Shown in pieces: positions 16,451 through 43,156 of a stretch of 64,000 nucleotides of DNA (position 1 is the first letter of the stretch; each line of letters opens with the position of its first letter). Made by a program: the position numbers and the translations under genes. Source of the DNA: Candidatus Rokuibacteriota bacterium (GTDB lineage: Bacteria > Methylomirabilota > Methylomirabilia > Rokubacteriales > CSP1-6). Under the pieces are notes generated by a model, which was given only the letters and a program-made list of their open reading frames with translations, had not been told where the DNA came from and did not search any database. The stretch lies in assembly GCA_016209385.1 (NCBI GenBank), contig JACQWB010000136.1:5880-69879 (forward strand), given 5' to 3'.

Positions 16451-16470
16451 AATCAGGTATTTACCTGATT
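16451..16470. promoter_or_regulatory. Perfect 9-bp inverted repeat with a 2-bp spacer (AATCAGGTA-TT-TACCTGATT) in the divergent HK / rsbR intergenic region.
   Basis: AT-rich palindrome in an otherwise ~70% GC region. Its half-site matches the GGAATCRGGTG motif seen upstream of other operons. Confidence 0.5.
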
Positions 16471-17078: not shown

Positions 17079-17990
17079 ATGGCTGACACTCGAATGAGCT
17101 CGACCCCGGTTATCAGTCCGCCCGCTCGAGACGAATCCACCACGGTGCTCCTCCGCGAGCTGGTGGCGCACCTTCGGCAGAGCCGCACCCAGCTCCGCGA
17201 GGAATGGGCGCGGCGCATCACCGAGGCCAAGTTGCTGACGGCGATGACCCCGGAGGAGATCTTCGCCGAGGCCACGGCCGTGTACGACAACTACCTCGAG
17301 GCCCTGGAGACTGGATCGATCGAGGCCCTGGAAACCTACGCCCGCAACCTGTCAGAGCGGATCATTCCGCGAGGGGTCGAGACGCACGAGGTCGTGGGTA
17401 TCGTGCTCCTGCTCCGCGACGTGCTCGCCCGGTCGCTGTTCGCCAAGTACCAGCAAGACTTCCATCAGCTCAACCGCATCCTGGACGCCTACGAGCCTGC
17501 GGCCAACCGGATCGCCAACACGGTGGCCGTGGGCTTCGTCCAGGAGCGGGAGCGGGTCATCCGCCAGCAGCAGGAGGCGATCCGTGAGCTGTCCACTCCG
17601 GTGCTGCCGGTTCGGGAGCGGCTGCTGGTCCTCCCGGTTATCGGTATCATCGACCCCCAGCGCGCCAGGCAGCTGACGGAGCAGCTCCTCCGCGGCATCC
17701 GGATCAACCGCGCGAAGGTGGTGGTCATGGACATCACGGGCGTGCCGGCCATGGACGCCACGGTGGCCAACCACCTGGTGCAGACGGTGGAGGCCTCGCG
17801 GCTCCTGGGGGCCACTGTCATCGTCACCGGCCTGTCGCCCGAAATCGCCCAGACGCTGGTCAACATCGGCGTGGACCTGGGCAAGATGAACACGGTGGGC
17901 GACCTGCAGGGCGGCATCGAGGAGGCCGAGCGGCTGTTGGGTTACAAGGTCATCCCGATCACGGTTGAGGCGCCGGTAGCGACCTCATAG
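17079..17990 (+). CDS. rsbR: RsbR-like stressosome sensor protein (N-terminal non-haem globin-like sensory domain + C-terminal STAS domain).
   Basis: STAS region VLPVIGIIDPQRARQLTEQLL...VVVMDITGVPAMDATVANHL. AAGGAGGA Shine-Dalgarno sequence 8 nt upstream of ATG 17079. Confidence 0.8.
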   Translation: MADTRMSSTPVISPPARDESTTVLLRELVAHLRQSRTQLREEWARRITEAKLLTAMTPEEIFAEATAVYDNYLEALETGSIEALETYARNLSERIIPRGVETHEVVGIVLLLRDVLARSLFAKYQQDFHQLNRILDAYEPAANRIANTVAVGFVQERERVIRQQQEAIRELSTPVLPVRERLLVLPVIGIIDPQRARQLTEQLLRGIRINRAKVVVMDITGVPAMDATVANHLVQTVEASRLLGATVIVTGLSPEIAQTLVNIGVDLGKMNTVGDLQGGIEEAERLLGYKVIPITVEAPVATS

Positions 17991-18002
17991 CGCGAGGGGC
18001 CC

Positions 18003-18374
18003 ATGGCAGTCCCCATCCTCAAGCAGCGTGACTATCTGATCGCGAACATTCAAGCGGCGCTCACAGACGACGACCTGAGGAAACTCCGCGACGCATTGGT
18101 CGCGCAGGTCGGCGAGTTCCGCTCCCGCGGCGTCATCGTGGACGTCACGGCGTTGGACGTGATGGACTCGTTCGCCGTCCGCACCCTGCGCGATCTCGCG
18201 CACATGAGCCGCTTGCGTGGCGCCGAGACGGTCATCGTCGGCATTCAGCCGGAGGTGGCATTTGCGATGACCCAGCTGGGTCTGACGCTCGAGGGTGTGG
18301 CCACCGCACTCGACCTTGAGGAAGGGCTCGCGTACCTCGACCGAAAGACGAAGCGGAAAACGACGGTAAGATAA
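18003..18374 (+). CDS. rsbS: RsbS-like STAS-domain stressosome scaffold / anti-sigma-factor antagonist.
   Basis: 123 aa single STAS domain (VIVDVTALDVMDSFAVRTL). Confidence 0.8.
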   Translation: MAVPILKQRDYLIANIQAALTDDDLRKLRDALVAQVGEFRSRGVIVDVTALDVMDSFAVRTLRDLAHMSRLRGAETVIVGIQPEVAFAMTQLGLTLEGVATALDLEEGLAYLDRKTKRKTTVR

Positions 18375-18389
18375 GCGGGTCAGCGCACC

Positions 18390-18809
18390 GTGGCCAGCGC
18401 GCGTACGCTCGTTGAGAAGACGATTGTGCCCATCCGGTCGGATCGGGACATCGTGACCGCCCGCGAGCAGGGGCGCGGCGTGGCGTTGCTGTTGGGATTT
18501 TCGCCGACCGAGGTGACGCTGATCGCCACGGCGATCTCGGAGCTGGCGCGGAACATCGTCCTCTATGCAGGCACCGGGGAAATGGTGCTGGGGCTCGTGG
18601 AGGAGAGCAAGAAGCGCGGGATGGTTATCGTGGCTCGCGACGAAGGGCCGGGCATCGCCGACGTCCGGCGGGCCGTCGTGGACGGCTACTCCACCTCCGG
18701 CGGCCTGGGGCTGGGTTTGCCGGGGGTGAGACGGCTGATGGACGAGTTCGACATCTCGTCGGAGCTCGGCAAGGGCACGACCGTCACCATCAGGAAATGG
18801 AAACGGTGA
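18390..18809 (+). CDS. rsbT: RsbT-like serine kinase / switch protein (HATPase_c, GHKL fold).
   Basis: IRSDRDIVTAREQGR...TAISELARNIVLYA...GPGIAD match RsbT/RsbW-type kinases. Confidence 0.8.
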   Translation: MASARTLVEKTIVPIRSDRDIVTAREQGRGVALLLGFSPTEVTLIATAISELARNIVLYAGTGEMVLGLVEESKKRGMVIVARDEGPGIADVRRAVVDGYSTSGGLGLGLPGVRRLMDEFDISSELGKGTTVTIRKWKR

Positions 18810-19402
18810 TCGAGTGGGCCGTTGGGGCGCTCCCGCTGCCCGGGCAAACCGCATCCGGTGATCGCCATGTCGTCAAGCCCTTCTCCCACGGCGTCCTGGT
18901 CGCGGCGATCGACGGCTTAGGACACGGCGGGGAGGCCGCCTTCGCGGCCCAAATCGCGGTCACCACGCTGGAAACCTTCTCCCACGAGTCCCTCATCCCG
19001 CTGCTGAAACGGTGCCACGAAATGCTCCGCGCGACCCGGGGCGTCGTGATGAGCCTGGCAGCGTTCAACCCGCGCGACGAGACGATGACGTGGCTGGGCG
19101 TTGGGAACGTCGAAGGGATCCTGGTTCGCGCCGACCCTGACGCCAACCCGCGGCGGGAGGCGCTCCTCCTCCGGGGCGGCGTTGTCGGGGGCCAATTACC
19201 GGACCTCCGCGGCAGCATTTTCACGGTGGCGCCTGGCGACACCCTGATGCTCGCCACCGACGGGATCCGCCCCGAGTTCGCCGACACGGCGAACACGATC
19301 GGTGAGCCCCAGCAGATCGCCGATCACATCCTGGCGGAGTACGGTAAGGGCACGGACGACGCGCTGGTGGTGGTCGCGCGGTACGTGGGCAAGGCGGGAT
19401 GA
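18797..19402 (+). CDS. rsbX: PP2C-family (SpoIIE-type) phosphatase, RsbX-like feedback phosphatase.
   Basis: ASGDRHVV...VAAIDGLGHG...LATDGI are PPM motifs. It overlaps rsbT and the downstream kinase, indicating translational coupling. Confidence 0.75.
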   Translation: METVIEWAVGALPLPGQTASGDRHVVKPFSHGVLVAAIDGLGHGGEAAFAAQIAVTTLETFSHESLIPLLKRCHEMLRATRGVVMSLAAFNPRDETMTWLGVGNVEGILVRADPDANPRREALLLRGGVVGGQLPDLRGSIFTVAPGDTLMLATDGIRPEFADTANTIGEPQQIADHILAEYGKGTDDALVVVARYVGKAG

Positions 19403-20700
19403 AGGACGCCGTGCAGGCGCTCGCGGAAGAGTATACGGCGGCGTTGAAGGAGTACCTGGCCGGCCGGGAGGAAGCGCTTCTGCAGCGCGCCTACGAACTC
19501 GGACGCAAAGCGCTCGCCGGCGGGTTGGGCGTGGTGGAAATGGTCACGCTCCACCGGGAGGCCATGGTGAACGTCTCGCCTGCCGCGCTCGATCAAGTCG
19601 CGGAGGCTGTGAGCGCGGCGGGGAACTTCCTGGCGGAGAGCCTGTCGCCCTTCGAGATGACGCACCGCGGGTTCCGCGAAGCGAATGCCGCGCTGCAGGT
19701 GAGCGAGGCGCGCTATCGCGAGCTGTTCGAGAACGCCAACGACATCATCTTCACCACGGATCTCGAGGGGAACTTCACCTCGATCAATCGGGCCGGCGAG
19801 CAACTCAGCGGCTACCAGCGCGACGAGACGGCTTCGATGAGCTTCGCGGCGGTCATCGCACCCGAGGACCTCGAGCGGGCGTGGACGATGCTCCAGCGGA
19901 AGCTCACGGGCCAGGCGGAACGCACCAGTTACGAGTTAGAGATCCTTACGAAGGACGGGCGCCGTGTCCCGCTCGAAGTCAGTACCCGGCTGATCTACCA
20001 CGAGGGGAAGCCCGCCGGGATCCAGGGCATTGCCCGCGATGTGACCGAGCGCAAGCGGGCCGAGCAGGCGGTGCGCCGGCTGAACGAGGTGCTGGAGGAG
20101 GAAACGAGACGGCTCGCCCATGCGCTCCACGACGAGGCGGGGCAGCTCCTGGTCTCCGTGTACCTCGCGCTGGAAGAGATCGGACGCGAGCTGCCCGCTC
20201 GGGCCCGCGGGCGTCTCCAGGAGGTGACGGCGTTGCTCGACCAGATCGAGGAGCAACTGCGGAGGCTCTCCCACGAGCTCCGTCCCACGATTCTGGACGA
20301 CCTGGGGCTCGTGCCTGCGGTCGAATTCCTGGCAGGAAGGGTCGCCAAGCGGAGTGGACTCCGGATCGGCGTCGAGGGCTCGACGGGGGGGCGGCTGCCA
20401 CCGTTGATGGAGACCGCCCTGTACCGGAGCGTGCAGGAGGCCCTGGCCAACGTGGCGAGACACGCTCAGGCCACCCGCGTGAGGGTCCACCTCCGGCGGG
20501 AGGCCCGCGCGATCCGGTGTTCCGTCCGGGATGACGGTGTCGGCTTCGACGTGGGGACCGTCCTGGCGCGACGGGGCGACCGCGGCCTGGGGTTGGTCGG
20601 GATTCGGGAGCGGGCCGGCGCGTTAGGGGGCACGCTCGAGGTCATTTCCGCCCCCGGCCGGGGAACCGAGCTGCTCATCACGATTCCCCTGGGGACCTGA
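19399..20700 (+). CDS. Sensor histidine kinase with an N-terminal RsbU_N (RsbT-binding) domain, a PAS domain, a HisKA_3 (NarL-type) dimerisation domain and HATPase_c.
   Basis: N-terminal ~90 aa resemble the RsbU N-terminal domain. PAS region FENANDIIFTTDLEGNFTSINRA. H-box LAHALHDEAGQLL. G-box DRGLGLVGIRERA. ATGA overlap with rsbX. Confidence 0.8.
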   Translation: MKDAVQALAEEYTAALKEYLAGREEALLQRAYELGRKALAGGLGVVEMVTLHREAMVNVSPAALDQVAEAVSAAGNFLAESLSPFEMTHRGFREANAALQVSEARYRELFENANDIIFTTDLEGNFTSINRAGEQLSGYQRDETASMSFAAVIAPEDLERAWTMLQRKLTGQAERTSYELEILTKDGRRVPLEVSTRLIYHEGKPAGIQGIARDVTERKRAEQAVRRLNEVLEEETRRLAHALHDEAGQLLVSVYLALEEIGRELPARARGRLQEVTALLDQIEEQLRRLSHELRPTILDDLGLVPAVEFLAGRVAKRSGLRIGVEGSTGGRLPPLMETALYRSVQEALANVARHAQATRVRVHLRREARAIRCSVRDDGVGFDVGTVLARRGDRGLGLVGIRERAGALGGTLEVISAPGRGTELLITIPLGT

Positions 20701-20702
20701 CG

Positions 20703-21335
20703 ATGCCACTTCGGATCCTCTTGGCCGACGATCATCAGATCGTCCGTCAGGGGTTGAAAGCCATCCTCGAGCGGGAGGGGTTCGGCATCGCCGGCGAGGC
20801 GGCGGACGGCCACGAGGCAGTCCGGCTGGCCCGGGAGGTGTCCCCCGATGTGGCCGTCCTCGATCTCGCGATGCCGCTGCTGAACGGGCTGGGCGCAGCG
20901 CGCGAAATCCACCCGGCTTCCCCCCGGACGCGAACGATCCTGCTGACCATGCATACCGAGGACCAGTACATCCTGGAGGCCCTCCGGGCCGGATTCAAGG
21001 GGATCGTCTTAAAGAGTCAGGCCGCCGCGGACCTGGTCCAGGCGATCCGGGAGGTTTCCCGGGGAGGGATCTACCTGAGCCCCGGCGTCTCCCGCGCGGT
21101 GGTCGAGGCGTATCGGGCCAAGACCGAGCTTGTCGCCGATCCCCTCACTCCCCGGGAGCAAGAAGTCCTCCAGCTGATCGCCGAAGGAAAGACGACGAAG
21201 GAGATCGCGACCCTGCTCGGGGTCAGCGTCAAGACCGCGGAGTCCCACCGGACCCGGCTCATGGACAAGCTCGACATCCACGAGACCGCCAGCCTGGTCC
21301 GCTACGCCATCCGTCGGGGCCTGGTCGAGCCCTGA
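20703..21335 (+). CDS. NarL/FixJ-family response regulator (REC + LuxR-type HTH).
   Basis: ILLADDHQIVRQG...VAVLDLAMP...LTPREQEVLQLIAEGKTTKEIA. Confidence 0.85.
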   Translation: MPLRILLADDHQIVRQGLKAILEREGFGIAGEAADGHEAVRLAREVSPDVAVLDLAMPLLNGLGAAREIHPASPRTRTILLTMHTEDQYILEALRAGFKGIVLKSQAAADLVQAIREVSRGGIYLSPGVSRAVVEAYRAKTELVADPLTPREQEVLQLIAEGKTTKEIATLLGVSVKTAESHRTRLMDKLDIHETASLVRYAIRRGLVEP

Positions 21336-21552
21336 CCCCGGCGGCCCCCGCGGGCCGCCCCCTTTCCCGTTCAGGGGTTCCCCTCCCTTGTAATCCAGAG
21401 TTCACCGGATTGCCCTGCCCTGCGTGGAAAGGCCACACTTTCTTCGTACTTTACTATGTTGAGCACGGTTGATCGTCAGGCACGGTGGAAGCCGTCGGAG
21501 GGCTGGGTGCCCCACAAGGACGGGGATCGTCGTCTGCAGGGGAGACTTCGAG

Positions 21553-22185
21553 TTGCCGCTACGCATCCTCTTAGCTGACGACCACCTGATTGTTCGCCAG
21601 GGCGTCAAGGCGGTCCTCGAGCGCGAGGGGTTCGAGGTGGTCGCCGAGGCGGGAGACGGCCACGAGGCGGTCCAGATGGCCCGGGAGCATCATCCCGACG
21701 TGGCAGTCCTGGATCTTGCCATGCCGCTGCTGAACGGCCTGGATGCGGCGCGCGAGATTCCCCCCGTCTCGCCGCGGACGCGAACGATCCTGCTGACGGT
21801 GTACGCCGACGATCCGTACGTCGTGAAGGCGCTGCAGGCGGGGATCAGCGGCTACGTGTTGAAGACCCAGGCTGCGGCGGACCTCGTGCGGGCGATCCAG
21901 GAGGTCTCCCGGGGAGCGATCTACCTGAGCCCCGGCGTCTCCCGCACGGTCGTCGAGGCCTATCTGGCTAAGAGCGACCTCCCCCCCGACCCGCTGACCC
22001 CGCGGGAACGCGAGGTCCTACAGCTGATCGCCCAGGGGAAGCGGACGAAGGAGATCGCCCAGCTCTTGGGAATAGGGGTGAAGACCGCCGAGTCTCACCG
22101 GGCGCGGGTCATGGAGAAGCTGAACATTCACGAGACCGCCAGCCTGGTCCGCTACGCCGTCCGCCACGGCCTGATTCAGCCGTGA
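21553..22185 (+). CDS. NarL/FixJ-family response regulator, tandem paralogue of 20703-21335 (~70% identical). TTG start inferred by alignment with the paralogue.
   Basis: LPLRILLADDHLIVRQGVKAVLEREGF aligns with the paralogue's N-terminus. GGGGAG Shine-Dalgarno sequence upstream of TTG 21553. Confidence 0.8.
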   Translation: MPLRILLADDHLIVRQGVKAVLEREGFEVVAEAGDGHEAVQMAREHHPDVAVLDLAMPLLNGLDAAREIPPVSPRTRTILLTVYADDPYVVKALQAGISGYVLKTQAAADLVRAIQEVSRGAIYLSPGVSRTVVEAYLAKSDLPPDPLTPREREVLQLIAQGKRTKEIAQLLGIGVKTAESHRARVMEKLNIHETASLVRYAVRHGLIQP

Positions 22186-24190: not shown

Positions 24191-24632
24191 GCTTCGCCTT
24201 TAGGGCATTTTCCTCGTTTCCTTTCCGGGATTCACCCGATTCCGGGTCTTCGGTACCGTGCGCTACGGTGAGAAAGAATCGACGCGAGCGCGGCTGCCTT
24301 TGAGGGGAGCGAAACGCTGAACCGGAACGCTCTGAGCGACTTTAAATCGGCGCTGACCTCCAGGCTGAACGTGAGAGTCGCCGTGAAGTGCCCTCGGACC
24401 AGCCATCGCTCGCGTTCGCTGAGTATCCTGGCGGCATAGACCGGTAACGAGGCGCCCGGCCTCGGCGCTCGGGTCGCAGGGGCAGGGGCGACGAGACCTC
24501 TTGCCTTCTCAGGCAGGGACTTGGTCGCCGGAGCAAAGAAGGTCCAAGACGCGTGCGGGGTTCGGCCTTCGAGACGGGGCGCGAACCAAAGGGGGCGAAG
24601 CCTTGCCAGGGGACGTCGAGTTCGAGGGAGAG

Positions 24633-25181
24633 ATGCGCGGCTGGCCGGTGAACAGTCGAGCGGAGAGCGCCCGGTCGGCCGAGGCAAAGTGGTACGCGCT
24701 CTGGACCCAGAGCAACTGCGAGCAGCTCGTACACGATCAGCTGGCGGCGAAGGGGTATCATCCGTTTCTTCCGAAGCTGGGCGCCTGGTCCAGGCGCGGG
24801 GGCGTGCGGCGTCTCATCGACGTTCCGATGTTCCGCGGGTACCTCTTCCTGAACCACACGATGGACAAGTCCAGTTACATCGAGGTGCTCAAGACGCGGG
24901 GCGTGGTCCGCGTTCTGGGGGAGCGGTGGGATCGCCTGGAGGTGGTCCCGGACAGCGAGATCGAAGCGATCCAGCGGGTTCTGCGCGTGCGCATCCCGGT
25001 TCTGCCGTATGCGTACTTGCGGGAAGGCCAGCGGGTGCGCATCACCGGCGGGCCGCTGGCAGATATCGAGGGCATCCTGGTGCAGCGCAGACCGAACAAA
25101 GGGCTGCTGGTTCTCTCCGTGGACCTGCTCAAGCGGAGCATCGCGGTGGAGGTCGATTGTACGCGCGTGGCCGCCGCGTAG
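24633..25181 (+). CDS. NusG-paralog transcription antiterminator (NGN + KOW domains; RfaH/UpxY/LoaP-like). First gene of the EPS operon.
   Basis: NGN region WYALWTQSNCEQLVHDQLAAKGYHPFLPKL...VPMFRGYLFL. KOW region GQRVRITGGPLADIEGIL. Confidence 0.75.
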   Translation: MRGWPVNSRAESARSAEAKWYALWTQSNCEQLVHDQLAAKGYHPFLPKLGAWSRRGGVRRLIDVPMFRGYLFLNHTMDKSSYIEVLKTRGVVRVLGERWDRLEVVPDSEIEAIQRVLRVRIPVLPYAYLREGQRVRITGGPLADIEGILVQRRPNKGLLVLSVDLLKRSIAVEVDCTRVAAA

Positions 25182-25267: not shown

Positions 25268-26398
25268 ATGGCGATGCGGGCGGGAGGGGCCGCGCTGGCG
25301 GTCGTGCTCCTGGGAGCGGTGCTCGTCCCGGGCCTCGCCGGCGCTCAGCCTGGCGTCTTCGTGACTCCCTCCTTCTCCATCGCCGAGGTGTACGACGACA
25401 ACCTGTTCTTCACTCCCTCCCGACGCGAGAAGGACCTGATCTCGCGCTTCAGCCCGGGGATTCAGGCCGGCTACCAGTCCGTCCCGCTCACGCTCCTGGG
25501 TCGCTACACGTTCGACGCGGAGATCTATCCCGACCACCCGGAGCTGGACGACGCCCAGGTGCGCCAGGAAGCCGGGATCGAGTTCCGGTCCCGGCCAAAC
25601 CGGACGCTGACGCTGTCGTTCGACGGGGCATTCCTGGAAACGCAAACGCCCGGCCAGCTCAACGTGGCGACCGGCATTCTGGTGGGGCGGGTGCGCGCCC
25701 AGCGCCTCTCCGCCAAGCCCGGCGTCGCCTACGAGTTCGACCCCCTCACGGCCGGGGCTGCGGAGTACACGTTGACGGAGGACGAGCTGTCGGGGGGTGT
25801 CACGATCCTGACCCATGTCGGCGACCTTCGCCTCGACCGGCGGATCACGCCGCTGGACACGGGGAGCGTGGGCTATACCCTCCGCGAGTTCGACTTCGAC
25901 CCGGGCGGCACCACCACCTCCCATGCGGTCACGCTCGGCTGGACGCGCCAGCTCACGCCGCTGACGAGCCTCACGCTTCGCGGCGGACCCCGCTTCAGCG
26001 AGGGGTCGGTGGACCCGGAAGTCTCGGCCTCGATCCGCCATCGGCTCAGGCTCGGGGAGGTCTCGTTCACGTACTCGCGCAGCCAGACCACGGTCATCGG
26101 GCGGGCGGGCAGCGTGGACAACGAGGCCTTCATCGCCACCGCGGTGCTCGAGCCCCTGCCGTCGCTGGAGGTACGCGCCGCGCCGAGCCTCCTTCGGACC
26201 TTCGACGCCGACCGGGAAGCCAGGGTGTACGCGCTGGATCTGACGGCCGAATACAAGATCACGGCGTGGCTTTCCCTCGAAGGCGCCTACGAGTTCAGTT
26301 TCCAGGAGGGCGGCGTCAACGCGATACGCGACGAGGAGATCTCCCACAATATCATCCTGCTGCGGCTGACCGTCAAGCAGCCCTACCGCATTTACTAA
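25268..26398 (+). CDS. Outer-membrane beta-barrel protein of the EPS locus (EpsL-like).
   Basis: Signal peptide. Alternating amphipathic beta-strands throughout. C-terminus ends with the aromatic residue RIY. Confidence 0.65.
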   Translation: MAMRAGGAALAVVLLGAVLVPGLAGAQPGVFVTPSFSIAEVYDDNLFFTPSRREKDLISRFSPGIQAGYQSVPLTLLGRYTFDAEIYPDHPELDDAQVRQEAGIEFRSRPNRTLTLSFDGAFLETQTPGQLNVATGILVGRVRAQRLSAKPGVAYEFDPLTAGAAEYTLTEDELSGGVTILTHVGDLRLDRRITPLDTGSVGYTLREFDFDPGGTTTSHAVTLGWTRQLTPLTSLTLRGGPRFSEGSVDPEVSASIRHRLRLGEVSFTYSRSQTTVIGRAGSVDNEAFIATAVLEPLPSLEVRAAPSLLRTFDADREARVYALDLTAEYKITAWLSLEGAYEFSFQEGGVNAIRDEEISHNIILLRLTVKQPYRIY

Positions 26399-26400
26399 GA

Positions 26401-26498
26401 CAGTCGGAGGGGGCCTCGACGGCCCCCTCCGAAGCCTCCCCCACGAATCGGTTGCGCGGGCGAAGCCCGCGCTCGAAGGGCATTGACTCCGACACGCT
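26401..26498 (+). repeat. Copy C of the dispersed repeat (short form).
   Basis: CAGTCGGAGGGGGCCTCGACGGCCCCCTCCGAAGCCTCCCCCACGAATCGGTTGCGCGGGCGAAGCCCGCGCTCGAAGGGCATTGACTCCGACACGCT. Confidence 0.85.
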
Positions 26499-26618
26499 AC
26501 TAGGCGGTCGGTTTCCGCCCCCGTTCCTCGAGGGCCGCGCCTGTCGGCTTGAGCGGCAGGCGGCCTTCGCCCCACCCCGATTCTTCAAGCGACACGCCTC
26601 CCGATCCGGAGGAACGCC

Positions 26619-27224
26619 ATGGTGATTGCGCGGCTCGTTTGGCGACTCGTGATCCCGGCGCTCATCGTCGGCGCGACCGCGCTGGCCGTGGGACACGGCC
26701 GCGCGTGCGGTGAGGAAGGGGCCGCCGCCGTCGAGCCCGGCGATTACCGGATCGGGCCGGAGGACGTGCTCGACATCGCGGTCTGGAACAACACGGCGGT
26801 CAGCCGAACGGTCCCCGTGCGGCCGGACGGCAAGATCTCGCTCCCGCTCGTGAACGACATCCGGGCGGCGGGCCTGACGCCGATGCAGCTCCGGGATGTC
26901 CTGATGAAGAAGCTCGTGGAGTACATGCCTCAGCCCGAAGTGTCGGTCATCGTGCGGGAGGTGCGCAGCTTCAAGGTATCGGTTCTCGGCGAGGTGAAGA
27001 CGCCGGGTCGGTACGAGCTGCGGAGCCGGAGCACCGTGCTGGATGTCCTTGCCATGGCCGGCCCGTTCAGCGAGTTCGCCGCCCGCTCGCGGATCATCAT
27101 CCTCCGCCACGACGGCAGCAGCAGCATCAAGCGGATCCCGTTCAACTACAACACGGCCATCTCGGGGCACGTGAACGGGGAGAGCTTCTTCCTCCAGCCC
27201 GGGGACATCATCCTGGTGCCGTAG
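26619..27224 (+). CDS. Periplasmic polysaccharide export protein (Wza-like Poly_export + SLBB; EpsE-like).
   Basis: DYRIGPEDVLDIAVWNN...VRPDGKISLPLVNDIRAAGLTPMQL matches the polysaccharide-export family. Confidence 0.8.
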   Translation: MVIARLVWRLVIPALIVGATALAVGHGRACGEEGAAAVEPGDYRIGPEDVLDIAVWNNTAVSRTVPVRPDGKISLPLVNDIRAAGLTPMQLRDVLMKKLVEYMPQPEVSVIVREVRSFKVSVLGEVKTPGRYELRSRSTVLDVLAMAGPFSEFAARSRIIILRHDGSSSIKRIPFNYNTAISGHVNGESFFLQPGDIILVP

Positions 27225-27248
27225 CCGGCACCCTCGGGGGGGAACGAC

Positions 27249-27830
27249 ATGACGACTCGCGCGCGACTCGGTGCATTGCTGGTGATCCTGGCGGTGGGCG
27301 GGCCGGGTCTGGTCTCGGCCCAGCAACCCGGCAAGGCTCAGGAGCCGGGTGAATTCCGGATCGGGCCCGGGGACGTCCTGGAGATCTCCGTGTGGAACAA
27401 CGCGGCGCTCAGCCGAACGGTCCCCGTGCGGCCGGACGGCAAGATCTCCCTCCCGGTCCTGAACGACGTGCAGGCGGCGGGCCTCACCACGGTGGAGCTG
27501 CGGAACATCCTGAAGAAAAGCCTGGCCGCCTACGTCGCCGCTCCGGAGGTCTCCGTGATTGTCCGGGAGGTGCACAGCTTCGCGGTCTCGGTCGTTGGCG
27601 AGGTGAAGACACCCGGCCGCTACGAGCTCACGACTCGGAGCACGGTGCTGGATGCCCTTGCCATCGCCGGCCCGTTCAGCGACTTTGCCGCCCGCTCGCG
27701 GATCGTGATCCTGCGCAACGAGGGCGGGAAGACCAAGCGGATCCCGTTCAACTACAACAAGGCCGTCTTGGCGGACGGGCAGCAGGAGAACTTCTTCCTC
27801 CGGCCCGGCGACGTCATCGTGGTGCCGTAG
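27249..27830 (+). CDS. Second polysaccharide export protein, tandem paralogue of 26619-27224.
   Basis: Same motifs (EFRIGPGDVLEISVWNN...VRPDGKISLPVLNDVQAAGL), ~70-75% identity to its neighbour. Confidence 0.8.
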   Translation: MTTRARLGALLVILAVGGPGLVSAQQPGKAQEPGEFRIGPGDVLEISVWNNAALSRTVPVRPDGKISLPVLNDVQAAGLTTVELRNILKKSLAAYVAAPEVSVIVREVHSFAVSVVGEVKTPGRYELTTRSTVLDALAIAGPFSDFAARSRIVILRNEGGKTKRIPFNYNKAVLADGQQENFFLRPGDVIVVP

Positions 27831-27849
27831 GCGGTCCGGGGGGGGACGC

Positions 27850-29412
27850 GTGGCGCACGGCATGGCCGATCAGGCGCAACAGGGGTCCGGGGTCCACCTG
27901 GCGCAGGAAGTGTGGTCGCGCCGGAAGTGGTCGGCCATCCTGGTCTTCATGGCGACGTTCAGCCTGGTGGTCAGCGTCGTGAACTTCCTCCCGAGCATTT
28001 ACCGCGCCACGGCCACGGTGCTCATCGAGCGCGAGCAGGTCCCTGCGACGTTTGTCAGGCCCGCGGTCACCGTGGAGCTCGACACGAGGCTTCAGACCAT
28101 CAGCGAGCAGACCCTGAGCCGCGCGCGGCTGCTGGAGCTGGTCAACCTCTTCGACCTCTACCCGGAGGTGAAAGGCCGAGCTCCGCTTGAGCACATCGTC
28201 GAGCGGATGCGGCGCGATATCAAGCTCGAGCTCAAGCAGGTCGAGCACACGGTCGGGCGCGGCGCGACCGTCGCCTTCGCGCTCAGCTACCGCGGGCGCG
28301 ATCCGCAGAAAGTCGCCAACGTGGCCAACACGCTGGCGTCGTTCTACATCGAGGAGAACTGGAAGATCCGCGGGCGGCAGGCGACGGAGACGACCGAGTT
28401 CTTCAAAGTCCAGCTCGACGAGATGCGGAAGCGGCTGGAGGAGCAGGAACGCCGGGTCGGCGAGGCGAAGCGACGGTATCCCGGCGAGTCTCCTCCTCAG
28501 ATGCAGGCGAACCTGCTCACGCTGGAGCGGCTCAGCGCTCAGCTTCGGCTGAACATCGAACGGCTGACCCGGCTCATGGAGCGGAGGGAAATCCTGGCGC
28601 GGCAGCTCGCCGAGGCGGCTCCGCGCGGCGCGGGGGGCGGGCCCAGCGCCAGAGCGGATCGGCTCGGCAAGCTGAAGGAAGAGCTGATCGAGCTTCGCCG
28701 GAGTTACACCGAGAAGTACCCGGATGTGATCCGGTTGAAAGCGGAGATCGCCGCCCGGGAGCGCGAGGCCGAGGCGAAGCCGGACGCGGAGGCGGACCCC
28801 GCTGTCCAGCGGCTGCGGCGGTCACTCCGCGAGGCGGAGACCGATATCGACGCCCTCAAGGACGAGGAGAAGCGGCTGAAAGAGGCGATCGCCGCGTACC
28901 AGCGGCGGATCGAGAACACGGCGGTCCGGGAGCAGGAGTTCACCCAGCTCCTGCGGGATTACGAGACGATGAAAGACCTCTACAGCTCGCTGCTGAGGCG
29001 GTACACGGACGCCCAGCAGGCGGAACATTTGGAGCAGGACCAGAAGGGGGAGAAGTTCAGCATGCTGGATCGCGCCGTGGTGCCGAACCATGCGGTCGCG
29101 CCGAACCACTTCCGGCTGATCGCCATGGGCCTGATGCTTTCCCTGGCGCTGGCCGTCGGCGTGGTGGTGGCGGCCGAGCAGGTCGACACGTCGTTCCACA
29201 CGGTGGACAGCCTGCGGGGCTTCACGAGCGTCCCGGTGCTGGTGAGCATTCCGCCGATCGTCACCGACGACGATATCGTCCGGCAGCGCCGGCGCGCCTG
29301 GCTCATCGCGGCCGCTTCGGCTGTGGGTCTGCTCCTCATCGTCGGGATGTCCTATTTCATCGCGCACGGCAACGAGCAGCTCGTGTCGATGCTGGCGCGC
29401 GGCGGGTCGTAG
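27850..29412 (+). CDS. Polysaccharide chain-length determinant protein (Wzz / PCP family, EpsF-like).
   Basis: N-terminal TM segment, long coiled-coil periplasmic region, C-terminal TM segment. Confidence 0.8.
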   Translation: MAHGMADQAQQGSGVHLAQEVWSRRKWSAILVFMATFSLVVSVVNFLPSIYRATATVLIEREQVPATFVRPAVTVELDTRLQTISEQTLSRARLLELVNLFDLYPEVKGRAPLEHIVERMRRDIKLELKQVEHTVGRGATVAFALSYRGRDPQKVANVANTLASFYIEENWKIRGRQATETTEFFKVQLDEMRKRLEEQERRVGEAKRRYPGESPPQMQANLLTLERLSAQLRLNIERLTRLMERREILARQLAEAAPRGAGGGPSARADRLGKLKEELIELRRSYTEKYPDVIRLKAEIAAREREAEAKPDAEADPAVQRLRRSLREAETDIDALKDEEKRLKEAIAAYQRRIENTAVREQEFTQLLRDYETMKDLYSSLLRRYTDAQQAEHLEQDQKGEKFSMLDRAVVPNHAVAPNHFRLIAMGLMLSLALAVGVVVAAEQVDTSFHTVDSLRGFTSVPVLVSIPPIVTDDDIVRQRRRAWLIAAASAVGLLLIVGMSYFIAHGNEQLVSMLARGGS

Positions 29413-29423
29413 GGCCGAGCTCC

Positions 29424-30428
29424 ATGTACCTGGAATTCTTCGGCCTGAAGGCGAAGCCGTTCAACAACACGCCTGACCCGAAGTTTCTCTACCTCACGCC
29501 GGGTCATCGCGAGGCGCTGGCGCACCTCGTGTACGGGGTCCAGGAGCAGAAAGGGTTCATCGTGCTCACGGGTGAGGTGGGGACCGGCAAGACGACGCTG
29601 CTCCGCGCCCTGCTTGAGCGGCTCGACGGCAGCAACACGGCGGTTGCCTTCGTCTTCCACTCGGCCCTCTCGTTCGACGACGTCCTCGAGTACATGCTCG
29701 AGGACTTCGGCCTGGGGAAGGTCGGGAAGAGCCGGGTCGAATGCCTGGTCGCGCTGAACGACTTCCTGATCGAGCGGCGGCGCGTCGGCCAGAACACCGC
29801 CGTGATCCTCGACGAGGCCCAGAACCTGCATCCGTCGACGCTCGAGCAGATCCGGCTCCTCTCGAATGCCGAGACGGCCACGGACAAGCTGCTGCAGATC
29901 GTGCTGGTGGGCCAGCCGGAGCTCGGGGCCAAGCTGGAGCTTGCGGAGCTGCGCCAGCTCAGGCAGCGGATCGGGCTCCGCTGCGCCATCTCGCCGTTGA
30001 CGGCGGCGGAGACCGGGGACTACATCCGGAGCCGCCTCCGGATCGCGGGGGCGCGGGATCTCAGCCTCTTTACCGAGCGCGCGGTGCGCCGGATCGCGCA
30101 GTACGCGGGCGGGATTCCGCGTGTCGTGAACCTGGTCTGCGACCACTGTCTCCTCATCGGGTACGCCGACCAGACGCGGCGGATCGATCGCGACATCGTG
30201 GAGCGGGCGATCGAGTACTTCGAGGAGGGCGCGCTGGCGCTCCCGCGGCGACAGGGGTTCGCCGCGCTCGCGCCGCTGCGGGGATTCCGGTGGCTCGTCG
30301 GAGCGCTCATCGCCTCCGTGATCGGCATCCTCGCGGGGTTGGCGTTGCAGCCCGATGCGGTGGCGTACGTGTCCGATTTGGTGTCCGGATCGCTCTCGAG
30401 CCTCGCGGACGCGCTGGGCGCCCAATGA
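29424..30428 (+). CDS. AAA ATPase of the ExeA/GspA-like family (secretion ATPase subfamily associated with PEP-CTERM-type EPS loci).
   Basis: Walker A motif GEVGTGKTTLLRAL, Walker B motif AVILDEAQNL. Confidence 0.8.
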   Translation: MYLEFFGLKAKPFNNTPDPKFLYLTPGHREALAHLVYGVQEQKGFIVLTGEVGTGKTTLLRALLERLDGSNTAVAFVFHSALSFDDVLEYMLEDFGLGKVGKSRVECLVALNDFLIERRRVGQNTAVILDEAQNLHPSTLEQIRLLSNAETATDKLLQIVLVGQPELGAKLELAELRQLRQRIGLRCAISPLTAAETGDYIRSRLRIAGARDLSLFTERAVRRIAQYAGGIPRVVNLVCDHCLLIGYADQTRRIDRDIVERAIEYFEEGALALPRRQGFAALAPLRGFRWLVGALIASVIGILAGLALQPDAVAYVSDLVSGSLSSLADALGAQ

Positions 30429-31459
30429 GCGAATTTTTCAGGGCGCTCGAGCGAGCCGAACAGGAGCGCATCCTGCGGGAGCAGGCGCGCCAACGGGAAG
30501 CCGGTGCGGTCGCGGTCGAGCCTCCCGGTGACGTCGCACCAGAAGAGACCCCGCCGGCAGCGGCCCCGCCGACGGTCCAGGAGCCGGTGTCAACGGGCGT
30601 CGAGCGGCCGGTCGAGGTGGAGGTCAGCCAGCCGGAGGCGCGGTCCGAAGACGGAGCGGTTCCCGCTGGCGTCGATGGCCACATGGTGAGCCTCATCACC
30701 CCGAGGGCGTTCGCGGCGGAGCAGTATCGGCGGCTTCGCTATGTAGTCGAGCAGCTCCATGCGAATGCCAACCTTTCGGTCGTCGCGGTCACGAGTCCCT
30801 CGGTCGGTGATGGCAAGTCCGTCACCGCCATCAATCTCGCCGGCGCCCTCGCGCAGGCGGTCGACGGGAAGGTGCTCCTCGTCGAAGCGGACCTGCGCCG
30901 GCCGTCCGTCGCCCATAAGCTGGCGCTCGGCGAATCCGCGGGGCCCGGGCTCGTGCGGGCGATCCTGGACCCGAACCTGACCCTGGAGAGCGTGGTGTGC
31001 CGCCATCCGGTGTTCAATCTGTCGATCCTCCACGCCGGCCGGAGCGAGGCCGCTCCGTACGAGTTGCTGAAATCGCCGCGGCTCGGAGAGCTGATCGCGG
31101 ACGCGCGCCGTCGTTACGAGTACCTGGTGCTCGATATGCCTCCCTTGCTGGCGGTGCCCGATTGCCAGGAGCTCGCGCAGTGGGTGGACGGCTTCCTCAT
31201 CGTCGTGGCCGCCAACAGGACGCCGCGCAAGCTCGTCGAGGAATCCCTGAACCTCATCGAGCCGAACAAGGTTGTCGGGTTCGTATTCAACCGAGACGAT
31301 CGACCGCTCTCCGGGTACTACGCGTACTACTACGGCTACGGGCCCGCCGAGGGCGACCTGCTGGGATGGTGGGGCCGCGCCGCGAAAAAGCTCGAGGGGT
31401 CGATCCGGGGGCGGCGGTTCCTCCGGGGAGCGCGGCCCGCCCGGGCGCCGCGACGCTGA
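30425..31459 (+). CDS. Bacterial tyrosine (BY) autokinase, EpsG/Wzc cytoplasmic-domain type.
   Basis: Walker A motif TSPSVGDGKS. C-terminal tyrosine cluster SGYYAYYYGYG. ATGA start/stop overlap with the upstream ATPase gene. Confidence 0.8.
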   Translation: MSEFFRALERAEQERILREQARQREAGAVAVEPPGDVAPEETPPAAAPPTVQEPVSTGVERPVEVEVSQPEARSEDGAVPAGVDGHMVSLITPRAFAAEQYRRLRYVVEQLHANANLSVVAVTSPSVGDGKSVTAINLAGALAQAVDGKVLLVEADLRRPSVAHKLALGESAGPGLVRAILDPNLTLESVVCRHPVFNLSILHAGRSEAAPYELLKSPRLGELIADARRRYEYLVLDMPPLLAVPDCQELAQWVDGFLIVVAANRTPRKLVEESLNLIEPNKVVGFVFNRDDRPLSGYYAYYYGYGPAEGDLLGWWGRAAKKLEGSIRGRRFLRGARPARAPRR

Positions 31460-31466
31460 TCACGCT

Positions 31467-33299: not shown

Positions 33300-33414
33300 C
33301 GCGCAGCTCTCACGTTAGAGCCGATCCGTCGAACCTGATCGCGCTCGCGCCGCCCGTTCGCTCCAGCCCACAGGCAGCCAAGACCCTCTAACAGCGTGCT
33401 GAAAAACTCCACGC

Positions 33415-33525
33415 GAATGCTCGAAGGGTCCACTTGGGGACAGCCGAAGCGCTTCGGGCGCGGGCTTGGCCCGCGCAATCTCGGGGGGAGGTTCGGAAGG
33501 GGGGCGGAGCCCCCCTCCGAGGATC
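33415..33525 (-). repeat. Copy D of the dispersed repeat (degenerate).
   Basis: Retains both hairpins: GCGCGGGCTTGGCCCGCGC and GGAAGGGGGGCGGAGCCCCCCTCC. Confidence 0.55.
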
Positions 33526-33526
33526 G

Positions 33527-33784
33527 ATGATGGTTCGCAAGGAGAAACTCCGCGGCACGGGTCCGGCGTACCGGCAGGGGTATCCCAAGATGGCTCCCTG
33601 TCTCGGGTGGTGCAACCGGCTCCACATGTCCCAGGGGCCCGGTGACCGCTTCTGCGAGCTGTGCCGGAGGCGAAAGGAGAAGATCGCCGGGACATGCGGG
33701 GACCTCTCCACCGCAGGGGAACCGGAGGTGCGTGATGCTTCTCGTGCTGAGGCGAAGACGACGGGAGCTGCTCCGCGAGATTAG
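33527..33784 (+). CDS. Hypothetical small zinc-ribbon protein (85 aa).
   Basis: ATGATG start preceded by a GAGGA Shine-Dalgarno sequence. CxxxC-(13)-CxxC motif (CLGWC...FCELC). High GC3 over the first 65 codons. Confidence 0.3.
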   Translation: MMVRKEKLRGTGPAYRQGYPKMAPCLGWCNRLHMSQGPGDRFCELCRRRKEKIAGTCGDLSTAGEPEVRDASRAEAKTTGAAPRD

Positions 33785-33983
33785 GGAGGGCATCAGCGAG
33801 TTCTATCGGGAACGATCGGCGACCGGTGAAGCGTCGGAGTCGGCGGACGAGGTCATGCCGAGTACCCACGGGATCGGAACGCTAAAGATCGAGCAGGCAC
33901 AGCGTGAGACCGCGGGACACACCGTGGAGGCACGCAGACAGAAGGAGGAGGAGAACGATGGCGGAACCAGCGATGGTTCATAG
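33735..33983 (+). CDS. Hypothetical small charged protein (82 aa), overlapping the two flanking small ORFs.
   Basis: GGAGG Shine-Dalgarno sequence 7 nt upstream of the ATG. Moderate GC3. Confidence 0.25.
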   Translation: MLLVLRRRRRELLREIREGISEFYRERSATGEASESADEVMPSTHGIGTLKIEQAQRETAGHTVEARRQKEEENDGGTSDGS

Positions 33984-34188: not shown

Positions 34189-34229
34189 GTCGCGTGTGCG
34201 GCCGAGGGCAATGATCCGCATCTGGTCCC

Positions 34230-39002: not shown

Positions 39003-39020
39003 ATGAACCGCGAATCCCAG

Positions 39021-39230: not shown

Positions 39231-39231
39231 G

Positions 39232-43154: not shown

Positions 43155-43156
43155 AG

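Follow-up and report, generated by a model that had tools for sequence, protein, structure and literature searches.

The window analysed here, a 64 kb stretch of DNA from the genome of a Rokubacteria soil bacterium, contains seven genes at positions 17079–22185, in the order rsbR-rsbS-rsbT-rsbX-kinase-RR1-RR2 (Table 1). All seven lie on the + strand with a GC3 of 0.81–0.90, all encode proteins with the expected Pfam domains, and Pfam, NCBIfam, and PDB matches were obtained for each product. A previous sequence-only reading described rsbRSTX as a contiguous, overlapping array; the array is indeed contiguous, however only rsbT and rsbX (13 nt) and rsbX and the kinase gene (4 nt) overlap, with the remaining junctions being gaps of 12, 15, and 2 nt. 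The ATGA overlap reported between rsbX and the kinase gene is present at 19399–19402 and is conserved, with this start-stop overlap indicating coupled expression. The same reading proposed two tandem NarL-type regulators, and a REC-GerE pair is present, although the start of RR2 needed correction: the most likely start is TTG 21553, preceded by a GGGGAGA Shine-Dalgarno sequence and yielding 210 residues, so that RR1 and RR2 would be parted by a 217-nt spacer.

Table 1. Features of the cassette and its surroundings, in window positions.
Feature	Position	Strand	Description
Palindrome TCAGGTATTTACCTGA	16453..16468		Perfect; candidate operator of the stressosome operon
rsbR	17079..17990	+	Non-haem globin-like N-domain, helical linker, C-terminal STAS
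rsbS	18003..18374	+	Single STAS domain (Pfam)
rsbT	18390..18809	+	GHKL serine kinase/switch protein; HATPase_c_2
rsbX	18797..19402	+	Single-domain PP2C phosphatase, SpoIIE family
Kinase	19399..20700	+	Cytoplasmic; RsbU_N-PAS-HisKA_3-HATPase_c (Pfam)
RsbU_N of kinase	19426..19659	+	Residues 10-87; presumed RsbT docking/dimerisation domain
Motif PFEMTHRGF	19648..19674	+	Near-invariant; kinase residues 84-92, start of linker helix
PAS of kinase	19711..20043	+	Residues 105-215; between linker and DHp helix
RR1	20703..21335	+	NarL/LuxR-type, REC + GerE HTH; 2 nt past kinase stop
RR2	21553..22185	+	REC + GerE paralogue of RR1, 75% identical; most likely start
NusG paralog	24501..25181	+	UpxY/RfaH/LoaP-like; specialised antiterminator at the head of the EPS locus
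Leader element AAGGGGGCGAAGCC	24589..24605	+	Conserved, with a TTG after it; precedes the NGN domain of the NusG paralog
EPS biosynthesis/export locus	25268..63224	+	XrtA/PEP-CTERM-like; proposed target of the cassette

We consider, with a probability of roughly 65%, that the seven genes constitute one signalling cassette, in which a minimal stressosome (RsbR, RsbS, RsbT, and RsbX) has a NarL-type two-component system as its output. No sigma-70-family, further STAS, RsbV, or RsbW-like gene was found among the ~56 ORFs scanned across the window, in agreement with the earlier claim, and no RsbU_N protein of the cassette carries a PP2C domain. The position given for the module, between pilus-related genes and an EPS locus, also holds, with prepilin-motif proteins and a PilZ protein encoded upstream and the ~38 kb EPS locus downstream.

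The translation of rsbR begins at ATG 17079, preceded by AAGGAGG. Its product matches the RsbRD_N family weakly (Pfam) and carries the STAS domain at residues 176–268, with Listeria RsbR aligning over the full length (E = 5e-36). RsbR, and not RsbT or RsbS, is the best-conserved component, sharing 80–91% identity with orthologues of other phyla despite saturation of the synonymous sites. The canonical phospho-threonines are absent, with the T171 position occupied by Pro in 52 of 57 orthologues and the T205 position by Ala in the window protein, and the Bacillus activation scheme is thus not applicable unchanged. RsbS, which is matched by MtS (2VY9), retains the phospho-acceptor Ser56 (codon 18168–18170), aligned with S56 of Listeria and S59 of B. 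subtilis and invariant in 64/64 orthologues. Equally invariant in RsbT are the N-box Asn55 and G1 Asp84, as well as Arg25 and Arg29, equivalent to the RsbU-binding residues R19 and R23 of B. subtilis. The closest solved relatives of RsbX are MtX (3ZT9, E = 1e-16) and B. subtilis RsbX (3W40, E = 1e-8).

The proposal that the kinase begins with an RsbU-like domain is borne out by Pfam, with PF08673 (RsbU_N) scoring 45.6 bits (E = 8e-12) against a gathering cutoff of 25.5 bits, and by sequence matches to 2J70/1W53. Residues 1–96 form a four-helix AlphaFold model (pLDDT 92), the best PDB fold matches of which are the RsbU N-domains 2J6Z, 1W53, 2J6Y, and 2J70, with TM values of 0.60–0.67 to 2J6Z/1W53. 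Pfam likewise finds the PAS domain and catalytic core that had been described, with HisKA_3 spanning residues 237–298 and HATPase_c residues 338–432. The predicted phospho-histidine is His244 (codon 20128–20130), with the H-box, N, G1, and G2 positions unchanged across 106 homologues. In the full model (pLDDT 86.6) the PAS-kinase fold resembles YF1 and the DHp-CA part resembles DesK/VraS, whilst helix 4 of RsbU_N runs unbroken into the PAS domain. The PFEMTHRGF motif lies within a continuous helix (residues 64–111) and is kept in PAS-containing and PAS-less kinases alike, the latter, including those of the gammaproteobacterial loci L069 and L077, being ~310-aa proteins in which ...REAN.AL is joined straight to R.LNE.LEEE.... 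The B. subtilis RsbU residues contacting RsbT are not conserved in the alignment (Y28 is Gln29 and I78 is Ser83), and the docking of RsbT is thus proposed from domain homology and co-occurrence.

This cassette is shared by dozens of species spread over about ten phyla. In most of the 80 loci compared, drawn from Methylomirabilota, Acidobacteriota, Nitrospirota, Binatia, Verrucomicrobiota, Gemmatimonadota, Dormibacterota, and Proteobacteria, rsbR-S-T-X lies directly 5' of the kinase gene and a REC-GerE regulator directly 3'. An RR1 orthologue immediately follows the kinase in nearly all loci, and 23 have a second full-length REC-GerE gene within 6 kb. RsbU_N in the kinase is associated with upstream rsbS and rsbT (58/3/1/8; Fisher p = 1.5e-7, uncorrected for phylogeny), with stressosome genes likewise missing where kinases of the family are without RsbU_N. 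Furthermore, L075, L080, and at least 80 protein clusters have the N-domain and linker of RsbR fused directly to this HisKA_3 kinase core. Synteny, co-occurrence, and these fusions support a functional link from stressosome to kinase, as the sequence-only reading had suggested. That reading was right that such wiring had been noted bioinformatically, however “a few lineages” understates its documentation (PMC9237108, PMC12143880): rsbRSTX followed by an RsbU_N-bearing kinase has been described by Pané-Farré 2005, Heinz 2022 (PMC9237108), and Ho & Bradshaw 2025 (PMC12143880), and the present locus thus joins this group as a new member, distinguished by an inserted PAS. Stressosome-to-two-component wiring is widespread, strongly conserved, and recurrently found beside EPS genes.

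The palindrome TCAGGT-N4-ACCTGA may serve as the operator for the stressosome operon. In the window it sits in an 825-nt divergent intergenic region between a GAF kinase gene (−) and rsbR (+), and with up to 1 mismatch allowed 32 of 59 loci have it ahead of rsbR, at a distance of 54–620 nt, compared with 9 sites elsewhere in 1.27 Mb. At some loci it also occurs just upstream of a second receiver gene, and in L003, L005, L011, and L013 it lies between divergent wza-wzi genes and rsbR. No clear enrichment was seen at the NusG-paralog promoter (4 sites versus 1 expected, 2 mismatches allowed). The NusG paralog adjoins the cassette in many loci and is conserved, with the leader element present in 13 loci, in one copy each and always upstream of this gene. 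The true start of the NusG paralog is uncertain, TTG 24603 being possible. The EPS locus encodes an outer-membrane barrel, two Wza-like exporters, a chain-length determinant, and an AAA ATPase, together with a priming transferase, a Wzy-like protein, glycosyltransferases, FemAB-like GNATs, deacetylases, amidotransferases, a heparinase-like lyase, and UDP-sugar dehydrogenases.

The mechanism that follows is modelled on the B. subtilis and Moorella systems, and we infer from it the assembly of the complex, the docking of RsbT, the sign of regulation, phosphotransfer, and the operator assignment. The STAS domains of RsbR and RsbS would form a core holding the switch kinase RsbT, which, upon a cue at the strongly conserved RsbR N-domain, would phosphorylate RsbS Ser56 and leave the complex. 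RsbT binds RsbU_N and its linker and activates through linker rigidification (PMC12143880); free RsbT may similarly dock on the dimeric four-helix RsbU_N and invariant PFEMTHRGF linker of the kinase, changing how rigid the long helix through PAS into DHp is, or its register. This would shift the balance between His244 autophosphorylation and phosphatase activity, and the kinase would set how far Asp54 of RR1, and probably of RR2, is phosphorylated. The regulators would bind DNA as dimers, most likely at TCAGGT-N4-ACCTGA upstream of rsbR (autoregulation) and at neighbouring EPS promoters, making the EPS genes a putative target, with RsbX resetting the system by dephosphorylating RsbS-P.

It is improbable, in our view, that, within a co-transcribed stressosome and two-component system, the kinase is controlled mainly by PAS or RsbT-dependent phosphorylation and RsbU_N acts merely as a dimerisation module instead of receiving RsbT. 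The well-formed PAS between RsbU_N and DHp could be the dominant kinase input, the equivalents of Y28 and I78 are not conserved, and Heinz 2022 suggests that the downstream kinase is transiently phosphorylated in a case in which a stable RsbT interaction was not found. However, PAS-less orthologues retain RsbU_N and the invariant linker and still lie behind rsbRSTX, indicating that PAS is dispensable for coupling. Furthermore, the presence of RsbU_N follows that of rsbS/rsbT, the RsbT equivalents of R19/R23 are invariant, and the highest N-terminal conservation falls where the domain meets the linker, the place of RsbT contact in RsbU. Slightly less probable still is that the kinase is one of several RsbT targets, with the main output being a classical RsbU-type phosphatase and an RsbV/RsbW/sigma partner switch elsewhere in the genome. 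Our view covers 64 kb of that genome, and downstream in some related Binatia loci there are a lone receiver and one more RsbT/RsbW-like kinase; against this, sigma, RsbV, and RsbW genes are absent from the window, rsbRSTX, kinase, and regulator travel as a unit across phyla, and the rsbX/kinase overlap argues for coupled expression.

Control of surface structures, as originally suggested, is supported in part by the recurrent neighbourhood: of the 57 loci whose flanks were long enough, 24, spread over at least six lineages, have 2 or more EPS markers within 10 kb. Conversely, the absence of such markers from the other 33 and from the Nitrospirota, Verrucomicrobiota, and Proteobacteria loci, and the position of the palindrome, nearly always upstream of rsbR or a second receiver gene, would fit a cassette that controls itself alone or a dispersed stress regulon beside coincidental EPS and pilin-like neighbours. 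We regard this as unlikely, albeit less so than the preceding alternatives, with EPS genes recurring beside the cassette in varying orientation in Rokubacteria, Binatia, Terriglobia, other Acidobacteriota, and Dormibacterota, and the palindrome of one clade lying in a promoter region that the cassette has in common with the divergent wza-wzi genes.

The EPS locus is led by a NusG paralog, as are polysaccharide operons headed by UpxY/RfaH/LoaP paralogs. The NCBIfam entries for these paralogs and for XrtA/PEP-CTERM loci are NF033644, TIGR01955, and TIGR03007/03013/03015/03027/03108; the best hits of the window locus fall in the XrtA/PEP-CTERM-associated families, at scores below the curated cut-offs. 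The window yielded no exosortase gene, and the PrsK/PrsR and EpsA usual to XrtA/PEP-CTERM loci are here replaced or supplemented by the stressosome cassette. The cassette shares with the RsbR-RsbS-RsbT-RsbU-RsbV-RsbW-SigB-RsbX pathway of B. subtilis and Listeria the RsbS phospho-serine, an RsbX-type phosphatase, the catalytic residues and RsbU-binding arginines of RsbT, and the RsbU_N fold, whilst differing in the position of rsbX directly after rsbT and in lacking T171 (Pro) and T205 (Ala) equivalents in RsbR.

In Vibrio vulnificus, VvD1-VvD2 are likewise two-component proteins after rsbRSTX, with a PAS in the downstream kinase (PMC9237108); however, VvRsbR is a haem globin-coupled O2 sensor, VvD1 lacks RsbU_N, and an RsbT-VvD1 interaction was not detected. 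The published survey covers globin-coupled (haem) RsbR only, whereas the window RsbR is of the non-haem RsbR/RsbRD type. Output modules of rsbRSTX are known to carry RsbU_N (Heinz 2022, PMC9237108), and Ho & Bradshaw 2025 (PMC12143880, Fig. 5E) present an AlphaFold dimer of an RsbU_N kinase (MBI3545564.1). The “NreB”-type RsbU_N kinases that adjoin rsbT/stressosome genes of Proteobacteria (PMC9237108 Fig. 3; PMC12143880 Fig. 5E) embody the same concept and kinase class: RsbU_N is tied through a helical linker to a HisKA_3/HATPase core, and the gene comes after rsbRSTX. The PAS-less orthologues resemble these; the window kinase differs by its PAS, inserted in the linker, and by the two regulators encoded after it. 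In Moorella thermoacetica, a Firmicute (Quin et al. 2012, cited in PMC12143880 and PMC4976288), MtR-MtS-MtT-MtX-MtG has the same order, with the RsbU_N effector last; MtG is RsbU_N-GAF-GGDEF, its GAF placed like the PAS of the window kinase before the catalytic output, which in Moorella is a diguanylate cyclase making c-di-GMP and in this Rokubacteria MAG is a HisKA_3 kinase with LuxR-type regulators.

Gene calling by high third-position GC, in a window of 64–72% GC content, recovers rsbR, rsbS, rsbT, and an rsbX-type phosphatase gene in succession, as the sequence-only reading had proposed, with all four bearing the expected domains as judged by Pfam and PDB relatives. The description of this array as overlapping holds for the rsbT/rsbX junction (13 nt) and the rsbX/kinase junction, where the proposed ATGA overlap (4 nt) is real and is kept in annotated contigs of relatives, but not elsewhere, with gaps of 12, 15, and 2 nt at the remaining cassette junctions. 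The PAS domain and HisKA_3/HATPase core ascribed to the kinase are matched by Pfam, and the two tandem NarL-type regulators, RR1 and RR2, both carry REC and GerE domains, although a 217-nt spacer precedes RR2. The noted lack of RsbU PP2C, RsbV, RsbW, and sigma-B genes is borne out among the ~56 window ORFs, the protein with RsbU_N bearing a kinase instead, and the same ORFs, from across the whole 64-kb window, encode neither a sigma factor nor another STAS protein, and none of them is RsbW-like or an anti-sigma gene. A SigB-type partner switch is not present in the window, where RsbU_N is joined to a kinase without a PP2C, and the claim of a stressosome wired to a NarL-type two-component system is confirmed as observed and supported as interpreted. 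Two small ORFs following RR2 have neither a Pfam match nor a counterpart in related loci, and are not counted in the system. No RNA family was found across the whole window (Rfam, gathering threshold), a sigma-70 promoter scan of positions 16200–25300 returned no site, and terminator-like sites occur at or below chance.

Coordinates, strands, and domain content of the cassette and of other features of the window
Feature	Position	Strand	Domains or remarks
Mrp-type Na+/H+ antiporter operon	346-4418	-	
ATPase/DUF234 protein	4468-5892	-	
Large hybrid kinase	6116-9298	+	7TM region, two GAF, HisKA, HATPase, REC
Prepilin-motif gene region	9313-16253	-	
PilZ ORF	13002-14009	-	
REP/MITE-like repeat, copy	13922-14024	+	
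Palindrome	16453-16468		TCAGGT-N4-ACCTGA, perfect
63-nt tandem duplication	16519-16644		98% identical
rsbR	17079-17990	+	ATG 17079, 8 nt behind AAGGAGG
rsbS	18003-18374	+	STAS (Pfam)
rsbT	18390-18809	+	HATPase_c / HATPase_c_2 (Pfam)
rsbX-type PP2C	18797-19402	+	SpoIIE-type PP2C (Pfam)
Kinase, 433 aa	19399-20700	+	RsbU_N 10-87, PAS 105-215, HisKA_3 237-298, HATPase_c 338-432 (Pfam)
RR1	20703-21335	+	REC 94 bits, GerE 65.5 bits (Pfam)
RR2	ORF from 21469, probable TTG start 21553, end 22185	+	REC 99.3 bits, GerE 67.4 bits (Pfam)
Small ORF	22182-22502		
REP/MITE-like repeat, copy	22568-22740	-	
Repeat segment	22653-22683		
Small ORF	23041-24141		
NusG paralog	24501-25181		
AACCRAAGGGGGCGAAGCC element, then TTG	24589-24605		
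REP/MITE-like repeat, copy	26395-26484	+	
AACCRAAGGGGGCGAAGCC element, 2-mismatch copy	33498-33511		before priming transferase
EPS paralog pairs	36642-63224		
Asparagine-synthase-like amidotransferase	about 48330-50155		
Asparagine-synthase-like amidotransferase	about 54656-56581		
EPS glycosyltransferase ORF	59722-61902		
UDP-glucose dehydrogenase ORF	61899-63224		
tRNA-Gln(CTG) call, 91 nt	62058-62148		ARAGORN

The N-terminus of the kinase had been likened to that of RsbU, with a search against Pfam RsbU_N (PF08673) named beforehand as the check; the family is matched at 45.6 bits against a gathering cutoff of 25.5 bits, and is listed for nearly all of 120 homologues. By sequence alone, the similarity to the B. 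subtilis RsbU N-domain is weak (2J70, E = 0.02; 1W53, E = 0.033). When the whole kinase is modelled with AlphaFold (pLDDT 86.6), it has four N-terminal helices, with the last (residues 64–111) unbroken into the PAS domain, and a second long helix (216–264) running into the DHp domain. As a fold search with the whole-kinase model returned PAS-kinase and DesK-like matches only and was uninformative on the N-domain, the N-domain was modelled alone. The model of residues 1–96 (pLDDT 92.2) adopts a four-helix fold like that of 1W53, with 2J6Z as the best PDB match (probability 0.93, TM 0.60/0.66), and 1W53, 2J6Y, and 2J70 in the top 13 of 350,542 chains, with weak E-values (0.5–1.4) as expected for a small helical domain.

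The contact residues of B. subtilis RsbU are not conserved in the kinase, with Y28, I74, and I78 replaced by Gln29, Ala79, and Ser83. RsbT, by contrast, keeps Arg25 and Arg29 in all of 64 orthologues, 41 of which also have Asp at the position of Asp98; we take these residues to be the equivalents of B. subtilis R19, R23, and D92. RsbT R19, R23, and D92 have been implicated in RsbU binding, with RsbT also reported in contact with linker residues T89, R91, G92, and Q94 of RsbU (PMC12143880). The most conserved stretch of the kinase N-terminal region, PFEMTHRGF (residues 84–92), lies at the domain/linker junction, and the contacted RsbU linker starts a few residues past the end of the alignment of RsbU to the kinase.

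The remainder of the kinase has Pfam scores of 31.3 bits for HisKA_3 and 53.1 bits for HATPase_c, a DHp-CA fold resembling DesK/VraS, and residues H244, N351, D378, G380, G382, G398, and G401 invariant in 106 sequences. The family occurs in two forms, of ~433 aa with a PAS domain and of ~310 aa without one. In the shorter form the stretch PFEMTHRGFREAN.AL is joined straight to R.LNE.LEEE..RIAHALHDE, so that linker meets DHp directly and the PAS domain is a clean insertion in the linker. Among the related loci collected from other genomes (L001–L086), the PAS-less form is found in L055–L086 (e.g. L056 10001–10927 and L069 8147–9088), and is common in Binatia, Nitrospirota, Verrucomicrobiota, Proteobacteria, and some Acidobacteriota.

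The four-domain architecture of the window kinase recurs in more than 100 protein-database clusters at 55–71% identity, and scanning one genome per GTDB species yielded at least 586 relatives. The best 80 loci of these, which were compared, come from Rokubacteria/Methylomirabilota, Acidobacteriota, Nitrospirota, Binatia, Gemmatimonadales, Verrucomicrobiota, Dormibacterota, Gamma-/Deltaproteobacteria, and others. Searches by tblastn, with the window proteins as queries, place rsbR-S-T-X directly upstream and a REC-GerE gene directly downstream of the kinase in almost every locus that has sufficient flank, in agreement with annotated contigs. Among 70 loci with sufficient upstream sequence, rsbS and rsbT precede 58 kinases that have RsbU_N and one that lacks it, and are not upstream of three and eight such kinases, respectively (Fisher p = 1.5e-7, phylogeny ignored). 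Indirectly, this co-occurrence favours binding of RsbT by the RsbU_N domain. The acidobacterial locus L020 (5667–8055) has rsbS and rsbT only before its RsbU_N-PAS kinase, with rsbR and rsbX not adjacent and an insertion in the RsbU_N domain. In Binatia (L056 11749–13082, also L053 and L058), RR1 and the NusG paralog are separated by three genes, for a lone receiver, for an OmpR-type winged-helix protein that stands alone, and for a second kinase, RsbT/RsbW-like and 37–42% identical to RsbT.

Two acidobacterial genes (L075 9443–10705 and L080 3430–4473) fuse the N-domain and linker of RsbR, 64–68% identical to window RsbR, directly to the kinase family's HisKA_3/HATPase core, without STAS and without RsbU_N, and are followed by an RR1 orthologue. 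This architecture is present in at least 80 database clusters, some annotated as RsbRD_N + HisKA_3 + HATPase_c. By the Rosetta-stone argument, these fusions are the strongest independent support for the RsbR sensor and the kinase family acting in one pathway.

The stressosome proteins themselves are readily recognised. RsbR has a STAS domain (54.4 bits, Pfam) and aligns with Listeria RsbR over its full length (E = 5e-36), RsbS aligns with the Listeria, Bacillus, and Moorella proteins, RsbT, a small GHKL serine kinase, retains intact N and G boxes with invariant Asn55, Asp84, Gly86, and Gly88, and the solved structures closest to the single-domain RsbX are those of Moorella MtX (3ZT9) and the B. 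subtilis protein (3W40). Ser56 of RsbS, in a DSF motif, corresponds to Listeria S56, is invariant in 64 of 64 orthologues, and is the counterpart of the phosphorylatable serine S59 of B. subtilis. RsbR phosphorylation is central to the Bacillus model. In contrast to B. subtilis RsbR, with its phospho-threonines T171 and T205, the window protein is missing both equivalents: Pro195 stands at the former, where 52 of 57 orthologues have Pro, and Ala229 at the latter (Ser in 30 and Ala in 24 of 57). From these alignments, RsbR phosphorylation is probably not part of the mechanism in this clade.

Across ~10 phyla in L001–L086, RsbR is conserved far above the kinase and RsbX of the same operon. Window RsbR shares 80–91% identity with its orthologues from other phyla (a Terriglobia locus, at 68%, is the exception), compared with 69–90% for RsbS, 63–77% for RR1, 54–73% for RsbT, 50–67% for the kinase, and 44–64% for RsbX. 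Such identity between phyla could be attributed to recent horizontal transfer, however fourfold-degenerate sites of rsbR are near composition-expected identity, and thus near saturation, and the adjoining rsbX and kinase genes are only 44–67% identical. The state of the fourfold-degenerate sites marks the conservation as purifying selection on an old divergence, and recent transfer is rejected. Conservation extends over the whole protein, with mean identities of 85% in the N-terminal ‘sensor’ domain, 91% in the linker, and 90% in STAS. The N-domains are the variable part of Firmicute RsbR proteins, whereas that of the cassette RsbR is conserved, a reversal of the Firmicute pattern, and this extreme conservation hints at a common ligand or partner.

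RR1 and RR2 share 75% identity across 210 residues; their alpha-1 helices are nearly the same, and the DD...D54 receiver motifs are visible in their alignment. In 23 loci, another full-length REC-GerE gene follows within 6 kb, and a neighbour-joining tree without support values suggests several duplications of different ages, with the window pair appearing older than the split from the L010 lineage. Together these place the duplication as recurrent and retained, and not peculiar to the window genome.

When the regions ahead of rsbR were aligned, they proved to share a palindrome, TCAGGT-N4-ACCTGA. Allowing at most one mismatch, 32 of 59 loci, representing at least seven lineages, have it at a distance of 54–620 nt upstream of rsbR. 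Elsewhere in 1.27 Mb it occurs at nine sites, six of them just after RR1 or before a second receiver gene. It is a likely candidate operator. As a 7-4-7 inverted repeat suits a dimeric GerE-type regulator, autoregulation of the cassette by RR1/RR2 would be the simplest reading. The perfect copy in the window lies 610 nt from rsbR owing to inserted repeats, probably the 63-nt tandem duplication in the long rsbR upstream region, a duplication partly related to a repeat segment beyond RR2. Upstream of the RsbR-kinase fusion genes, one site with two mismatches is present in L075 and none was found in L080.

That the cassette controls surface structures in a stress-gated manner, as had been suggested, draws partial support from its surroundings, two or more EPS markers being no further than 10 kb from the cassette in 24 of the 57 loci whose flanks are long enough, spanning Rokubacteria, Binatia, Terriglobia, other Acidobacteriota, and Dormibacterota; no EPS neighbours were seen in the Nitrospirota, Verrucomicrobiota, or proteobacterial loci. 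In L003, L005, L011, and L013 the palindrome lies between divergent wza-wzi genes and rsbR. At the NusG-paralog promoter, where it was sought as a direct link between regulator and EPS genes, the palindrome is not clearly enriched (four sites with at most two mismatches against one expected), and the best candidates at this promoter in the window have three mismatches. EPS control by the cassette is a plausible proposal.

The NusG paralog heading the EPS locus best matches the UpxY family, followed by RfaH and LoaP (NCBIfam). The best NCBIfam matches of the ~38 kb of EPS genes are TIGR03007, 03013, 03015, 03016, 03027, 03097, and 03108, mostly below curated cut-offs; these families are XrtA/PEP-CTERM-associated, and no exosortase was seen among the window ORFs scanned. 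A near-invariant element, AACCRAAGGGGGCGAAGCC with a TTG after it, precedes the NGN domain of the NusG paralog by ~85 nt, and is found once per locus in 13 related loci, roughly 60–300 nt upstream of that domain. It could be a Shine-Dalgarno sequence with a TTG start, a small GGGGC-GAA-GCCUU hairpin, or an ops-like recruitment site; a second copy, with two mismatches, precedes the priming transferase gene. The EPS locus is also rich in paralog pairs, including two asparagine-synthase-like amidotransferases, two UDP-sugar dehydrogenases, two FemAB-like GNATs, and two polysaccharide deacetylases, and one glycosyltransferase ORF reads through into a low-molecular-weight phosphotyrosine phosphatase domain. 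A tRNA-Gln called within the UDP-glucose dehydrogenase ORF is probably a false positive.

On the other side of the cassette lie three prepilin-motif (N_methyl) proteins, a bactofilin-like protein, a PilZ-domain protein, and a GAF histidine kinase, preceded by a large hybrid kinase that adjoins the ATPase/DUF234 gene and the antiporter operon. A dispersed intergenic REP/MITE-like repeat of ~90–170 nt is present in three copies, 88–98% alike, with two GC-rich hairpins, TCGGAGGGGGCC...GGCCCCCTCCGA and GCGCGGGCGAAGCCCGCGC. The PilZ ORF runs into one copy, so its true start is probably internal.

We tentatively read the window as holding the Rokubacteria copy of an ultra-conserved soil-bacterial stressosome cassette, a reading to which, taken whole, we give a probability of only about 0.3. 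The RsbR sensor, ~85% identical across ~10 phyla and elsewhere fused to the same kinase type, would detect a universal intracellular cue; signalling would proceed by phosphorylation of RsbS only, without the RsbR threonines; and EPS/capsule would be controlled via autoregulated NarL-type regulators and a NusG-paralog antiterminator with its own conserved leader element. The family may prove a tractable means of finding the signal and output of stressosomes outside the Firmicutes, offering a single operon that leads cleanly from sensor to transcription factor, natural ‘short-circuit’ sensor-kinase fusions, a candidate operator, and cultivable relatives, e.g. Nitrospira and Acidobacteriota. If the EPS link is true, the cassette would couple the sensing of stress to the production of matrix in soil phyla that are abundant and mostly uncultured.

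To our knowledge, stressosomes outside the Firmicutes are barely understood, with the activating signal or output firmly known for none, and the Moorella system (RsbU_N-GAF-GGDEF) is the sole non-sigma output studied biochemically. Our literature search found neither a paper on this cassette family from Rokubacteria, Acidobacteriota, or Nitrospirota nor one describing a stressosome-EPS link of the type seen here. Heinz et al. 2022 described the four-gene rsbRSTX module as widespread and followed by diverse output modules, including phosphorelays, with some of the downstream proteins bearing RsbU_N (PMC9237108). Ho & Bradshaw 2025 showed that RsbT binds RsbU_N and the linker, activating by rigidifying the latter, and noted RsbU_N kinases in stressosome operons, with an AlphaFold dimer of an ‘NreB’ kinase presented (PMC12143880). 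The wiring of a stressosome to an RsbU_N kinase is therefore of an already published kind, to which the window adds a member, with the PAS insertion and paired regulators being modest variations. The searchable literature does not extend to the family's breadth, to how extremely RsbR is conserved, to its lost phospho-sites, the sensor-kinase fusions, the candidate operator, and the recurrent EPS neighbourhood.
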